From a bacterium (GTDB lineage: Bacteria > Patescibacteriota > Minisyncoccia > UBA6257 > GWB1-50-10): a stretch of 64,000 nt of DNA. Below the pieces are notes generated by a model. The model was given only the letters and a program-made list of their open reading frames with translations, had not been told where the DNA came from and did not search any database. Where the stretch lies: the NCBI GenBank assembly GCA_021801565.1, contig JAJYXV010000015.1, positions 91,168 through 155,167 on the forward strand. Direction: 5' to 3'. Numbering within the stretch: the first letter of the stretch is position 1; each line of letters starts with the position of its first letter. A program made the translations under genes and the position numbers. Shown here piece after piece: positions 2,432 to 50,983 of this stretch.

Positions 2432-4921
2432 CTATTTTTTATAAACAATAAATCGCGATTGAGTAACCGATCCAGATGAGTCGGTTACTTTTATCTCAAA
2501 AAGGTTTTGTGGGTCAAGTGTGGTATTGAAATAGTATTGATATTTATACACTACACCCTCTATATCAAAACCATTTATAAGACGATCGTTTATAAAAAGT
2601 TCAATTCTTTTCAGTTCTTTATTTTTTCCCGCCCGTATATTCGCTTGTATAATAAACGGAGAGGAAAGAAAATCGCCATTTTTTGGATAAGTAGTATTTA
2701 TTGTTGTTTTTTCATTCGTTTCGACCCCCGCACCACTTACGTTAGTGTTTTCGCGATCTGAAGAAAACGAAACATCTCCAGAAATTGATTGATTCCATAA
2801 ATAAGAATCGGGTATATGTGTATGTGCCCAATTTAATACCCCAGTTTCCCAGTTTTTAAACTGCGGATCATTCGCGGGATTTTCTGGTCTCGGGCCAAGG
2901 GGATTTTCTTTATCAATGTAATACAAAATTGAATGTATTTGTGGATATGTCTTTCCTTGGATTATTGGTTTCCATATATATTCCCCGTTTATCATTGGTT
3001 TTGGTGTATAAGGAATTGGGTCTGGTTTTGTAAATGTTTCTGGTTCGTATTTTTTTATAACATCTCGTAAAAACAAGTTCCAAATAGGAACCGCAGCGAG
3101 AATACTACTTCCTTGTCGTATCATGGGTGTGTTGTCGTTATTTCCGGCCCAAGCACCCACAACGAGAAATGGAGTATACCCAACAACCCACGCGTCTCTG
3201 TGGTCACCAGATGTTCCTGTTTTCAATGCCACATCGTACCCATCATAAACAGTGAGAGGAAGAGAACTTCCAAAAATTGGTGCACGGAGCTCTGGTGTTG
3301 AAAGAATTTGTGTAACAAGCCGTATTGACTGTGTGTCGTCAAACACCCTTTTTGTATTATCTGTATATTCTTCTAATACATTTCCCTCCGTGTCTTCTAT
3401 TTTTAAAATAAACACCTGTTCATGTCTCACCCCCTCTTGTGAAAGAGTTCCATATGTGTTTACAAGATCAATCAGTTTTACTTCTCCTCCGCCAAGAACC
3501 AAGGATAGACCGTATCTCCACGTTTCTTTAAGTGTGCTGATACCGAAATCATGAAGTGTTTTTAACGAATCATCCATTCCGGCGAGATATAATAATTTTA
3601 CAGCGGGAATGTTAAATGATTGTGCAAGGGCATTTTCAAGCGTGACGGGTCCGTGTTCTTTTTCATCGAAGTTTTGCGGACGATAACTTGTTTCTGGGGA
3701 ATCTCTTAAGTCAAATTCAGTATTCACATCAAAAAGGACTGTTTTGGGAGAATATCCCTTGTGAAATGCGGTGAGATATACAAATGGTTTTAGTGCGGAT
3801 CCTGGTTGTCTTAATCCTTGCGCCGCAACATTAAAATTTCCATCATTCTTTGTATCAAAGTAATCCCTAGAGCCCACCAAGGCCAAAACTTGACCTGTTT
3901 TTGGGTCTTCTGCAACCAACGCCGCATTGTTAGCGCCATACATTTTTTCGTTGTTTTTAGAGCCTTCTAGAACCGCTTTTTCGGCAGTTTCTTGCATATT
4001 CCAATCAAGCGTAGTGATAACCTTAAGACCACCGTTATTCACCAACTCCTCCCCATATTTATTTATGAGATAGTCCTTTACCATAAGAGAGAAATGAGGC
4101 GCTTTTATTGACCCCAAAGAGGGGGGAGAAAAAACTATTTCTTTCTTCTTTATTTTTTCTACGCTCTGTTTTTCTATAAAACCAAGTTCAGCCATTCTAT
4201 CTAAAACGTAATTTTTTCTATCAATTAAATCTTTTGTGTGAGATCCCCATGGAGAAAAATAACTCGGAGCTTTTAACATGCTTGCAAGTACAGCGGCCTC
4301 CTCTGGAGAAACGTTTCGAATTGATTTTCCAAAATATGTTTGACTTGCCGCCTCAACCCCATACGCGTTTGATCCATATGGTATTTGATTGAGGTAAAAA
4401 TAAAAAATTTGATCTTTCGAATATTTTGATTCGAGTTCTAGTGCGAGAACAAGTTCTTTTATTTTACGCGCGATTGTTTTTTCCGAGCTTAAAAAAATAT
4501 TTTTTGCCAATTGCTGAGTGATGGTTGATCCACCTTGCGCCACCTTTCCTTCCCGTAAATTTGTGTAGAGAGCCCTTAGAATTGCTTTCCAATCAAAGGC
4601 TGGTTGATTGTAAAAATCCGCATCTTCAGCTGCGAGCGTCGCCTTTTTTACCACATCGGGAATTTCTTCAAATGGAATAACAGTTCTTTTCTCCTCCCCG
4701 TGTATTTCATAAAGGACCACCCCGCCGGTTTTATCGTAAATCTTGGTTGATTGATTCGCTCTTCGAACATTAAATTGCTCCGGAGAGGGAAGGGTTTGTA
4801 TGAGAATTGCAACATATAAAGAACCAACAACCAGAAGCCCAAAAGATCCAAATATAAAAATAGACCAAAATGTTTTGGCAAACGATTTGTTTTTTGTTCC
4901 TACACGCCTTTTTTTGATCAT
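2432..4921 (-). CDS. Class A penicillin-binding protein (bifunctional glycosyltransferase/transpeptidase) with an extra C-terminal extension of about 200 aa.
   Basis: N-terminal TM helix. Transglycosylase motifs (GGSTITQQLAKN, RKIKE). Transpeptidase SALKPF (SxxK), SGD and KTGT motifs. Confidence 0.85.
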   Translation of the reverse strand: MIKKRRVGTKNKSFAKTFWSIFIFGSFGLLVVGSLYVAILIQTLPSPEQFNVRRANQSTKIYDKTGGVVLYEIHGEEKRTVIPFEEIPDVVKKATLAAEDADFYNQPAFDWKAILRALYTNLREGKVAQGGSTITQQLAKNIFLSSEKTIARKIKELVLALELESKYSKDQIFYFYLNQIPYGSNAYGVEAASQTYFGKSIRNVSPEEAAVLASMLKAPSYFSPWGSHTKDLIDRKNYVLDRMAELGFIEKQSVEKIKKKEIVFSPPSLGSIKAPHFSLMVKDYLINKYGEELVNNGGLKVITTLDWNMQETAEKAVLEGSKNNEKMYGANNAALVAEDPKTGQVLALVGSRDYFDTKNDGNFNVAAQGLRQPGSALKPFVYLTAFHKGYSPKTVLFDVNTEFDLRDSPETSYRPQNFDEKEHGPVTLENALAQSFNIPAVKLLYLAGMDDSLKTLHDFGISTLKETWRYGLSLVLGGGEVKLIDLVNTYGTLSQEGVRHEQVFILKIEDTEGNVLEEYTDNTKRVFDDTQSIRLVTQILSTPELRAPIFGSSLPLTVYDGYDVALKTGTSGDHRDAWVVGYTPFLVVGAWAGNNDNTPMIRQGSSILAAVPIWNLFLRDVIKKYEPETFTKPDPIPYTPKPMINGEYIWKPIIQGKTYPQIHSILYYIDKENPLGPRPENPANDPQFKNWETGVLNWAHTHIPDSYLWNQSISGDVSFSSDRENTNVSGAGVETNEKTTINTTYPKNGDFLSSPFIIQANIRAGKNKELKRIELFINDRLINGFDIEGVVYKYQYYFNTTLDPQNLFEIKVTDSSGSVTQSRFIVYKK

Positions 4922-11100: not shown

Positions 11101-11239
11101 GTTGACCCAGTAGTGAAAATTCGATATGTCGTTCCACGACACAGTTATATACTATTAAATTAAGACGGTTTGTGTTGGAAACGAATAGCAAAATTGAGCA
11201 CTTTCTCCCTATATAACCGAGTTTCTACTACCGGTTGAC
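11101..11239. repeat. Copy 1 of a perfect 139-bp inverted repeat. Its outer end is about 70 bp upstream of the ruvB start.
   Basis: The reverse complement is identical base-for-base to 15039-15177. Contains the palindrome TGTCG-TGGAA-CGACA (11127-11141). Both ends carry GTCAAC. Confidence 0.9.
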
Positions 11240-11293
11240 ATTTTTTTTGATATACGTATGATAGTCCCTAGTAAAGAGAAAGGAGATAGACAA

Positions 11294-11347
11294 ATGCTGT
11301 TTTTTATTAAAAACGCTGCTTTTCCGCCGCCTTTGGGTGGCTATTGA
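11294..11347 (+). CDS. Candidate 17-codon leader peptide MLFFIKNAAFPPPLGGY with a PPP stall-prone motif.
   Basis: Strong SD AAGGAG (11280-11285) 8 nt upstream of the ATG. The TGA stop (11345-11347) lies inside the -35 hexamer of the downstream promoter. Confidence 0.3.
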   Translation: MLFFIKNAAFPPPLGGY

Positions 11348-11372
11348 CAAATAAATATAAGTATGCTACAAT
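11344..11372 (+). promoter_or_regulatory. Near-consensus sigma70 promoter (TTGACA, 17 bp, TACAAT).
   Basis: TTGACA at 11344-11349, a 17-nt spacer, TACAAT at 11367-11372. The predicted transcription start is near 11379. Confidence 0.5.
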
Positions 11373-11378
11373 ACTAAC

Positions 11379-11556
11379 AGTATCCTGATAATAGACCTGT
11401 GGGTAAACGGATTTCTTCCCAGAAACTTTAGGACTATCTTGCTTTGGCTCGATAACTCCTCGGAAAAATCAGTCTTTTTCTGAAATATAATTTCGGAAAA
11501 TGTGTTTCACACGGCCTAACGGCTTTTTACCCACGGATCTATCATCAGGATTTTTT
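11379..11556 (+). ncRNA. Structured RNA of about 178 nt whose 5' and 3' ends form a closing helix of about 26 bp, followed by a U6 tract. 6S-RNA-like, or a cis-regulatory leader of the downstream transporter.
   Basis: 5' AUCCUGAUAAUAGACCUGUGGGUAAA pairs with 3' UUUUUACCCACGGAUCUAUCAUCAGGAU (two mismatches). Internal hairpins AGGACUAUC..GAUAACUCCU, GUGUUUCACAC and GCCUAACGGC. Ends UUUUUU, 21 nt before the next RBS. Confidence 0.45.
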
Positions 11557-11577
11557 AATAATTAAAGAGGAATACAA

Positions 11578-11853
11578 ATGGATGAGAAAACCATTTGGAG
11601 TATTTTGCTTATGTTTTGTTGGATTATTGTTTCTCTTGGTCAAATAAACCAAGGGATGAAGATTAAAAAAAACAAAAACATAGAAAATATTTCAATTTTC
11701 TTGCCAACAACAGTATTTATTGCACAGACAATTCTTTTTGTTAAAGGATTGTCTTATGGTGATTGGTCGCTAATTATTGGTGCTGTTGTGGTAAATATTG
11801 GTACTATGTTTAATGTTTTTAATTTTCTAAAAATTAAACCAATTCAGAAATAA
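11578..11853 (+). CDS. SemiSWEET-like (PQ-loop/MtN3 family) three-TM transporter, 91 aa, with GQ in place of the canonical PQ.
   Basis: Three predicted TM helices. SLGQ..KKNKNIENIS is aligned by eye to the SemiSWEET PQ..RDIS motif. Conserved Trp (GDWSL) and Asn (VVNIGTM) at the positions of the SemiSWEET binding-site W/N. Good RBS AAAGAGGA. Confidence 0.5.
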   Translation: MDEKTIWSILLMFCWIIVSLGQINQGMKIKKNKNIENISIFLPTTVFIAQTILFVKGLSYGDWSLIIGAVVVNIGTMFNVFNFLKIKPIQK

Positions 11854-11876
11854 GCGCCGCAGATTGCGGCGTTTTT
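11854..11876 (+). terminator. Rho-independent terminator after the transporter gene.
   Basis: GCGCCGCAGATTGCGGCG followed by TTTTT. Confidence 0.5.
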
Positions 11877-14747: not shown

Positions 14748-15005
14748 TTATTTTTTAATCTTTTTTGAAAGTCGCGATTTTATTCTATTCACCTTCCCGC
14801 GTTTTATAAGGCCTCTTTTTCCCATTTTATCAACTGTTTTATAAATTGTGGGAAGATATGATTCTGCCTCTTTTATTTGGTTTGTTGCAATGAGTTTTTT
14901 AAACTTTTTCACCGCCACCCTTATATTTGCTTTTTGTTCAATATTTCTCTTTCTGCGGCGAATATTTTGTCTCAGTGCTTTTTGTGCAGATGTTGTTTTT
15001 GGCAT
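14748..15005 (-). CDS. rpsT: 30S ribosomal protein bS20.
   Basis: MPKTTSAQKALRQNIRRRKRN.. is characteristic of bS20. 85 aa. Confidence 0.9.
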   Translation of the reverse strand: MPKTTSAQKALRQNIRRRKRNIEQKANIRVAVKKFKKLIATNQIKEAESYLPTIYKTVDKMGKRGLIKRGKVNRIKSRLSKKIKK

Positions 15006-15038
15006 AACGGTAGAATACTAAATCAAAGATTAGAAAAC

Positions 15039-15177
15039 GTCAACCGGTAGTAGAAACTCGGTTATATAGGGAGAAAGTGCTCAATTTTGCTATTCGTTTC
15101 CAACACAAACCGTCTTAATTTAATAGTATATAACTGTGTCGTGGAACGACATATCGAATTTTCACTACTGGGTCAAC
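15039..15177. repeat. Copy 2 of the perfect 139-bp inverted repeat. Its outer end is about 95 bp upstream of ruvA and its inner end is 33 bp upstream of the rpsT start.
   Basis: Identical to the reverse complement of 11101-11239. The palindrome TGTCGTGGAACGACA lies at 15137-15151. Confidence 0.9.
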
Positions 15178-29006: not shown

Positions 29007-29094
29007 TGTAAGCCCTATTAGAAATTAGTCAAAACTAACCACGGCTCGTATAAGCAGAGACAACTCTAGGTTACAAGAAAAAACTTTAATACAG

Positions 29095-29411
29095 TGGAGG
29101 TGGAGAGATTGAACCCTCTTCCAAAAATTTATTCACACATATTCTACAAGCTTAGTTTTGAACGAAAGTTCAGAACAATGATGCCTTGCGTTATTTAACT
29201 CCGAGCGGAGCAAAGCAAATCCGTATTCAGAGCGGTTCTCATAATAACACCGGTGATCCTCTATGAGACATGAAGGGCCGATGCCGCGCTACGCGTAAGC
29301 GAGTGCGGGGACTGCGTTAAAATTGGCAGTTATAATTTGTTGAACAGTTGTCGAGATATTCAGCTCGGCCTGCTATGTATAAATATAATCTCTGTCGATA
29401 CGTGCACCCCC
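29095..29411 (-). ncRNA. ssrA: tmRNA (SsrA), adjacent to smpB. The tag reading frame is read by hand as A-NFNAVPALAYA.
   Basis: Minus strand 5' GGGGGUG..GUAUCGAC (tRNA-like D region). 3' GAGGGUUCAAUCUCUC-CACCUCC-A, a T arm plus an acceptor strand complementary to the 5' GGGGGUG. Internal ORF GCC AAT TTT AAC GCA GTC CCC GCA CTC GCT TAC GCG TAG at 29289-29327. Confidence 0.65.
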
Positions 29412-50754: not shown

Positions 50755-50791
50755 TGGAGCGGAATACGGGAATCGAACCCGTGCCTTCACC
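50755..50791 (-). pseudogene. 3' half of a tRNA-Gly (anticodon-stem 3' strand through CCA), an exact duplicate of positions 39-76 of the adjacent intact tRNA-Gly.
   Basis: TGGAGCGGAATACGGGAATCGAACCCGTGCCTTCACC is identical to 50810-50846. Confidence 0.7.
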
Positions 50792-50809
50792 AAAGTTACA
50801 AAAATCTGA

Positions 50810-50883
50810 TGGAGCGGAATACGGGAATCGAACCCGTGCCTTCACCTTGGAAGGGTGACGTACAACCACTATACGAATCCCGC
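50810..50883 (-). tRNA. tRNA-Gly (anticodon TCC), CCA encoded.
   Basis: Minus strand GCGGGAT-TC-GTA..TAC-G-TCACC-CTTCCAA-GGTGA-AGGC-ACGGG-TTCGATT-CCCGT-ATTCCGC-T-CCA. Flanked by the 12-bp inverted repeats GTTACAAAAATC / GATTTTTGTAAC. Confidence 0.85.
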
Positions 50884-50906
50884 AGGTGAAGATTTTTGTA
50901 ACATTT

Positions 50907-50983
50907 TTGGAAGCCCGCCTGCCGCCTGCCTGTCGGCAGACAGGGCGGGCAGGGGTGACGTACAACCACTATACGAATCCCGC
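50907..50983 (-). pseudogene. 5' part of a second tRNA-Gly copy (positions 1-38) whose anticodon loop is interrupted between positions 32 and 33 by a 40-nt GC-rich hairpin.
   Basis: GCGGGATTCGTATAGTGGTTGTACGTCACC-C-[CTGCCCGCCCTGTCTGCCGACAGGCAGGCGGCAGGCGGGC]-TTCCAA. The first 32 nt are identical to the intact tRNA-Gly. Confidence 0.65.
50913..50952. repeat. GC-rich imperfect hairpin (copy A of the CCCGCCTGCC..CTGCCTG family).
   Basis: About 75 % GC in an AT-rich genome. Apex CCTGTC-GGCA-GACAGG. Outer stem GCCCGCC/GGCGGGC. Confidence 0.6.

Follow-up and report, generated by a model that had tools for sequence, protein, structure and literature searches.

A conserved, structured small RNA gene next to pilB in Paceibacteria, apparently of an uncatalogued family

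Genomes of the CPR/Patescibacteria measure about 1 Mb and carry very few regulators. In the 64,000-nucleotide stretch of DNA analysed here (hereafter, the window), a preliminary description had flagged a discrete structured RNA behind a strong promoter and offered two readings of it, namely a 6S-like RNA, or a riboswitch or attenuating leader of the small transporter-like gene that follows. Here we ask what this locus encodes. Comparative analysis indicates that the flagged region is a real, conserved and structured small RNA (sRNA) gene, apparently of an uncatalogued family. Its membership in the 6S family is not supported, and the riboswitch or leader reading fails because the family as a whole has no gene downstream that the sRNA could control. 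On balance, we favour the view that the locus is a stand-alone sRNA gene of a family absent from Rfam 15, whose product probably binds a protein and works in trans, in high abundance and shielded from exonucleases.

We began from the features of the window itself (Table 1). A window scan placed ahead of the sRNA gene a promoter with 11 of 12 consensus matches and a TG extension, bearing out the textbook promoter (TTGACA, 17 bp, TACAAT) of the preliminary description. From the predicted ends, the sRNA is ~175–177 nt long, and our two covariance models of the family, R1 and R2, match the window at 11378–11556 with 134 and 125 bits, respectively. The transcript had been described as closed by a 26-bp end-to-end helix with two mismatches. 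This helix, P1, is present, and 3 of the 26 positions in its arms break the inverted repeat, namely the two mismatches (A·C and C·A) and one G·U pair; shuffles of the window contained no such inverted-repeat match. Interior hairpins, including GUGUUUCACAC, were likewise recovered, and the complete RNA folds with a minimum free energy of −60.7 kcal/mol against −34.3 ± 3.7 kcal/mol for dinucleotide shuffles (z = −7.2; none of 200 shuffles folds as well). The U6 tract is also where it had been seen, at 11552–11557, but the spacing of 21 nt reported for it reaches the ATG at 11578 and not the ribosome-binding site (RBS). P1 followed at once by U6 has the form of an intrinsic terminator, that is, a hairpin and then a U run, although a stem that encloses ~120 nt is atypical of one. 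Thus, as far as sequence predicts, the locus combines a consensus promoter of its own with paired ends and a terminator, as expected of the discrete structured RNA that had been proposed, and it shares with 6S RNA an independent transcript of ~150–200 nt with paired ends. The reverse strand of the locus folds about equally well as a single sequence. Because both strands fold similarly well in the window sequence, assignment of the strand needed comparison with homologues.

Table 1 Features of the sRNA locus and the adjoining gene in the window.
Feature	Position	Strand	Basis or remark
sRNA promoter: −35 TTGACA, 17-nt spacer, extended −10 TGcTACAAT	11344–11372	+	boxes TTGACA 11344–11349, TACAAT 11367–11372
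sRNA transcript (predicted)	11378–11557	+	5′ end predicted from −10 box; 3′ end = U tract
P1, 5′ strand; outer part sequence-variable, inner CCUGUGGGU(A) conserved	11382–11407	+	pairs with 11526–11551
P2, 5′ strand; A/U-rich, one bulged C	11410–11419	+	single-sequence fold and alignments
Asymmetric internal loop, 5′ side; conserved YAG start	11420–11429	+	alignments
P3 hairpin; invariant GGA...UCC base, UNCG-type loop, invariant CGGCU	11430–11460	+	alignments
P2, 3′ strand (GGAAAAAUC)	11462–11470	+	fold and alignments
Variable 3′ domain; local hairpins 11476–11500, 11502–11512 and 11513–11524	11476–11524	+	window fold
P1, 3′ strand	11526–11551	+	inverted repeat and alignments
U6 tract; with P1, predicted intrinsic terminator of the sRNA	11552–11557	+	sequence
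orf91; 91 aa, three transmembrane segments, weakly SemiSWEET-like	11578–11853	+	RBS present, own promoter not found
Bidirectional terminator common to orf91 and convergent pilB	11852–11874		window scan

Since the downstream gene, orf91, is nearly an orphan, the genes neighbouring the locus were used as bait for relatives. RuvB relatives were taken from GTDB representative genomes, which yielded five close Patescibacteria loci (L009–L013, the five closest complete ones). The sRNA was found in all five, in four by nhmmer and in the fifth by eye, in the same position and relative strand as in the window. Subsequently, a core pattern derived from the P3 hairpin was scanned against metagenome contigs and returned at least 120 loci, of which ~45 were confirmed as full-length by R1 and R2; ~70 of the loci listed are chance matches that lack covariance-model support. 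In viral contigs, the same pattern gave five matches, none of them confirmed by the covariance model. To remove the bias of pattern-based sampling, we chose eight PilB homologues on protein similarity alone (63–92% identity). The sRNA was present in 8 of 8 PilB-chosen loci that reach the site, which derive from seven of the PilB homologues and include metagenome-assembled genomes (MAGs) of Jorgensenbacteria and Brennerbacteria. Loci chosen by RuvB or PilB homology only make up the unbiased set (n = 13). Including these 13, there are at least 55 distinct homologues from Patescibacteria metagenomes and MAGs, most of which come from the P3-pattern scan, so that the apparent conservation of P3 among them is inflated. 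More distantly, a MAG of Moraniibacteriota (L029) carries a full-length, diverged copy upstream of ruvB (45.7 bits), and one of Kerfeldbacteria (L047) has a probable copy. On this sampling, the family is conserved across Paceibacteria, that is, Jorgensen-, Wolfe- and Brennerbacteria and their relatives.

The homologues, which in alignment A4 (n = 46) are 107–187 nt long (median 151), individually fold into a common plan that runs from P1 through a linker, P2, an internal loop and P3 to a variable 3′ domain. P1 spans ~17–26 bp and joins the 5′ and 3′ ends of the RNA, and a linker of 3–5 nt separates it from P2, an A/U-rich helix of ~10 bp that often contains a central mismatch. The internal loop has 5–11 nt on its 5′ side, starting with YAG, and UC on its 3′ side, while P3 is capped by a loop of the UNCG type. 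The 3′ domain contains from zero to three hairpins depending on the homologue and is unalignable. In the unbiased set, sequence conservation is found in the inner part of P1 (ccUGuGGg/cCCaC.ga, also written CCUGUGGGC/GCCCACAG), which includes a C·A mismatch in 10 of 13 sequences, and in P3, where the GGA/UCC at the base and CGGCU are conserved; the full P3 motif is not universal there, as L217, L218 and L220 deviate from it. Conserved unpaired segments are only 2–5 nt long. Two further candidate elements were discarded. Pairing of the loop YUAG with the CUAA/UAAAC that follows P2 shows no covariation, given that CCAG variants occur without a CUGG partner, and the two segments lie at opposite ends of P2. 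The other, a hammerhead-like CUGAUGA in L011, lacks conservation.

A check for covariation in related genomes had been called for, and the helices pass it. In A4, 92.1% of cells are paired, compared with 72.4% in shuffles and 36–53% in slid controls, and double changes occur at 34 of 44 pairs. The alignment restricted to synteny-chosen sequences (A6, n = 13) gave nearly the same values, with 91.8% of cells paired compared with 75.1% in shuffles and 42–50% in slid controls, and with both sides changed at 30 of 44 pairs. By helix, compensatory changes in A4 affect all 22 pairs of P1, in which 96% of cells are paired, and 8 of 10 pairs of P2. P2 was missed by MAFFT with RNAalifold alone owing to misalignment and was recovered with a hand-specified structure and model-based realignment. 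Furthermore, G·U pairs are frequent and conserved in the alignment, and reverse-strand matches to the model score ~90 bits lower. Since G·U pairs are abundant and the reverse strand scores lower, we assigned the sRNA to the plus strand of the window.

The promoter is conserved along with the structure. TTGACA occurs in 13 of 13 synteny-chosen copies, and 12 of these have a TGnTAnnnT extended −10 element at the right spacing; among the 55 distinct homologues, 47 have an upstream TTGACW and 41 the full extended −10 consensus. From the promoter spacing, a sigma-70-type extended −10 promoter would start the RNA 2–4 nt before P1. At the other end, 32 of 55 homologues have at least four U directly after P1. 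Those examined among the rest carry, a few bases further on, a separate canonical terminator, which is often bidirectional with flanking A and U runs (for example, L010, L011, L029, L094, L153, L196, L218 and L221). Transcription is thus predicted to end at P1 plus its U run or, where the U run is missing, at this separate terminator.

The genomic setting is conserved as well. In nearly every locus the gene order is polA–tsaE–ruvB(−)/RNA(+)/pilB(−)...holA, rpsT, ruvA, such that the sRNA gene is divergent from ruvB and convergent with pilB; the latter is the next gene in most of the roughly 50 loci whose context was checked. This arrangement raises the possibility that the sRNA acts mainly in cis at the pilB junction, either as a bidirectional terminator or insulator or as a convergent antisense RNA that tunes pilB, through read-through or by pairing with its 3′ end, and shields ruvB from antisense transcription. 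In line with such a role, the 3′ end of the sRNA usually lies 0–60 nt from the pilB stop codon and in some loci overlaps the gene (by 44 nt in L220), and pilB is retained as the neighbour where ruvB has moved away (L120, L123, L153, L170 and L204). In many copies, moreover, P1 is preceded by an A-rich stretch and followed by a U run, and the separate terminators of copies that lack the U run lie between A and U runs. However, with so small a gap, tight linkage to pilB would be expected under neutrality as well, the U runs seen on the pilB strand are short and do not recur consistently, and a terminator needs neither a consensus promoter of its own nor a P2/P3 arm with invariant nucleotides and compensatory changes. 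We therefore regard a mainly cis-acting role as unlikely. The flanks of P1 are compatible with a secondary role as a bidirectional terminator, which on the sequence evidence cannot account for the sRNA promoter or for the conservation of P2 and P3. Because ruvB and pilB are part of a generally conserved gene order, these neighbours say little about sRNA function.

A structure bounded by 26-bp terminal inverted repeats around ~120 bp could also be a DNA-level element, such as a MITE, another mobile inverted repeat or a recombination site, that yields no RNA at all, and an unrelated repeat family of 144 nt does adjoin the locus. Against this, the element is present once in the 64-kb window and is syntenic across species whose RuvB proteins are only 50–70% identical; its G·U pairs impose a strand asymmetry, its ends lack target-site duplications, and viral contigs contain no copies. 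A purely DNA-level element is therefore extremely unlikely.

The adjoining repeat is an inverted repeat of 144 nt (window 11101–11244 on the plus strand and 15034–15177 on the minus strand) with arms that are 99% identical and a TTGAC box at the start and end of each. One arm lies between ruvB and the sRNA region and the other between ruvA and rpsT, so that together they bracket a 3.8-kb segment with the sRNA, orf91, pilB, holA and rpsT. Both copies occur at matching sites in L134, where they are ~70–80% alike and show compensatory changes in predicted hairpins, two weak tandem copies are found elsewhere in L096, and several assemblies break at the repeat. It appears to be a small family of structured repeats, either REP/MITE-like or a second RNA, that has apparently undergone recent gene conversion in the genome of the window. 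At 11235–11262 (+) lies a second strong promoter (TTGACA/16/TATGAT), which is followed by an RBS and a 17-codon ORF, MLFFIKNAAFPPPLGGY (11295–11348), whose stop codon shares bases with the −35 box of the sRNA promoter. A similar small ORF, MLFFTKNAAFLPPYKGY, is present in L134, and the whole module is missing from L096. Because most differences between the two ORFs are non-synonymous, the 17-codon ORF may not be translated.

If the sRNA were a riboswitch or attenuating leader, as had been suggested for the SemiSWEET-like transporter gene behind it, a dependent gene would be expected downstream. An ORF equipped with an RBS does begin ~20 nt past the 3′ end of the sRNA in the window and its closest relatives, and it lacks a promoter of its own, implying that read-through must feed it; in the window, the scan found no promoter between that of the sRNA and the ATG of orf91, and since no own promoter was seen, orf91 is likely transcribed by read-through of P1/U6. 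However, only the closest relatives of the window (PilB at least 88% identical) have a gene between the sRNA and pilB. Elsewhere in the family, no co-directional gene follows, and the convergent pilB comes next. Even among the closest relatives, the ORFs in this slot are mutually unrelated, comprising orf91 (91 aa) in the window, a 36-aa peptide with a single transmembrane segment in L134 and L214, a 158-aa membrane protein in L096 and a 131-aa soluble protein in L213. In addition, the 17–26 bp of P1, paired throughout the family, would be far too stable for ligand gating, no conserved alternative (terminator/antiterminator) pairing was seen, and no riboswitch model in Rfam 15 matches the sRNA or 19 homologous loci. 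A riboswitch or attenuating leader is accordingly very unlikely, and orf91 appears to be a recent, lineage-specific add-on, separate from the function of the sRNA family.

For orf91 itself, a word-indexed protein search returned only the self-match, and a full HMMER search found six homologues of 89–177 aa; we take orf91 to be a real but rare protein. No Pfam match was obtained. SemiSWEET_2 of NCBIfam matches with E = 0.0076 and 16 bits against a cut-off of 80 bits, and the three best PDB matches of a seven-sequence profile are all SemiSWEET structures (4x5m, 4rng and 4qnc), with E = 0.1–0.7. The proposed SemiSWEET likeness thus finds coherent support from profiles and structures, all of it weak, and none from Pfam. 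The conserved 36-aa hydrophobic peptide in the same slot, MKRF(L/F)NPS..F(L)TL.LIMAVS.AGTVL...ETL. (L134, reverse complement, 627–737; L214, ~4310–4450, minus strand), resembles type I toxins or small membrane peptides in size and shape.

We compared the locus with all 4227 models of Rfam 15 at gathering and permissive thresholds, using the window, the sRNA alone and homologous loci. Whether the window was searched at the gathering score, the sRNA by itself at E ≤ 10 or 19 diverse homologous loci at E ≤ 1, no model matched the sRNA, and the permissive matches were at chance level and fell outside or antisense to the sRNA. The search with 6S and riboswitch models that the preliminary description had recommended was therefore negative. 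For 6S in particular (RF00013), no match appeared at the gathering score in the window, at E ≤ 10 in slices of 501 and 189 nt and in L013, or at E ≤ 1 in the 19 homologous loci.

The architecture departs from that of 6S RNA as well. 6S RNA is a rod-like fold in which a large central bubble, with ~10 nt or more unpaired on both strands, separates two irregular helices. The sRNA resembles 6S RNA (RF00013, ssrS) in being a stand-alone transcript of ~150–190 nt with paired ends, a housekeeping promoter and a single copy (one per genome for 6S RNA, one in the 64-kb window here). It differs in having neither a covariance-model match nor a large central bubble: its closing helix is long and nearly perfect, and this helix opens into a multi-branch junction with only 3–5 unpaired nucleotides on the 5′ strand, a covarying P2 helix and a variable 3′ domain. 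The 6S-like architecture proposed for the locus is thus not borne out.

A functional analogue of 6S RNA is a separate matter. Such an RNA would imitate an open promoter to which the housekeeping RNA polymerase holoenzyme binds, its A/U-rich P2 and junction standing in for the melted region. Its size, its paired ends, its strong housekeeping-type promoter and its single-copy gene, universal in its clade as sampled, would all suit this role, and 6S RNA and the CPR were not mentioned together in any paper that our literature search turned up. The same features that set it apart from the family nevertheless count against the analogy: the absence of an RF00013 match in the sRNA or the 19 homologues, a short junction strand beside a covarying helix in place of a bubble, a nearly perfect P1 duplex of 17–26 bp where 6S helices are irregular, and a 3′ domain that ranges from zero to three hairpins. 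We consider a functional 6S analogue quite improbable.

Other known RNAs offer partial parallels. We take the plan of the sRNA to recall bacterial Y RNAs (YrlA-type, with the partner Ro/Rsr), in which a long stem pairs the ends, contains a sequence-conserved stretch and a conserved non-canonical position, and closes a variable multi-branch module; by this analogy, the architecture suggests that a protein may recognize the stem. Unlike Y RNAs, the sRNA has no rsr/TROVE gene nearby, its neighbours being ruvB, pilB, tsaE, polA, holA and rpsT, and it has neither a Y RNA match in Rfam nor a tRNA-like module. With orphan structured sRNAs known from comparative genomics, such as the Bacteroidales-1, Chloroflexi-1 and raiA-type motifs, it shares an intergenic position, strong covariation support and restriction to a single lineage. 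It differs from them in matching none of the 4227 Rfam 15 families, in its unusually long closing helix and in its invariant promoter. The processing stems of rRNA precursors, which are RNase III substrates, similarly form a perfect duplex of >20 bp from the flanks of a stable RNA, with a variable outer part. In contrast to those, the RNA enclosed by P1 is not an rRNA (no 5S match), and by this analogy P1 may be an RNase III processing stem. Comparisons with the 5S rRNA topology, SRP helix 8 and K-turns were dropped because the conserved sequences are absent and Rfam gave no match. A literature search on CPR/Patescibacteria found no conserved non-coding RNA described apart from universal RNAs (such as tRNA and tmRNA).

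Taken together, these comparisons lead us to favour the stand-alone, trans-acting sRNA, for which we propose the following outline. P1 would pair the ends and close a junction that carries the P2/loop/P3 arm and the variable 3′ domain, and would thereby seal both ends of the RNA against exonuclease. In trans, the RNA would, by exclusion, bind a protein partner; we infer this because no conserved unpaired segment is long enough to serve as an antisense seed and because helix sequence is conserved. Where the sRNA gene and pilB meet head-on, P1 could double as a terminator or insulator, and in the species of the window, read-through of P1/U6 would be the only visible route to orf91 transcription. 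A more specific version, to which we assign only a low probability, casts the sRNA as the RNA subunit or regulator of a ribonucleoprotein essential in Paceibacteria, for example the clade's 6S replacement that regulates RNA polymerase globally, or a ribosome- or RNase-associated RNA peculiar to these bacteria with their reduced genomes.

Since it was found in every related genome of the unbiased sample, keeps a near-consensus promoter and shows compensatory changes in its helices, the sRNA is likely abundant and important. The covariance model, the defined gene and its fixed position can serve metatranscriptomic, pull-down and phylogenetic-profiling work on organisms that are otherwise difficult to study. 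Two annotations that the locus invites, as 6S RNA and as the riboswitch of a sugar-transporter-like gene, are corrected here.

Elsewhere in the window, the tmRNA gene (29092–29411, minus strand; 100 bits with Rfam) and six tRNA genes are all ordinary. The region 50755–50983 (minus strand) contains tRNA-Gly(UCC) at 50810–50883, flanked by two exact partial copies of itself, one of the 5′ 31 nt (100 nt upstream) and one of the 3′ 37 nt (55 nt downstream); the upstream half-copy runs into CUGCC and a GC-rich hairpin. These partial copies could represent a disrupted or nested second tRNA-Gly gene, or integration scars. Finally, the promoter of rpsT (14748–15005, minus strand), TTGACG/17/TAGTAT, leaves ~5 nt to the ATG, and there is no RBS; for these reasons, the S20 mRNA may be leaderless.
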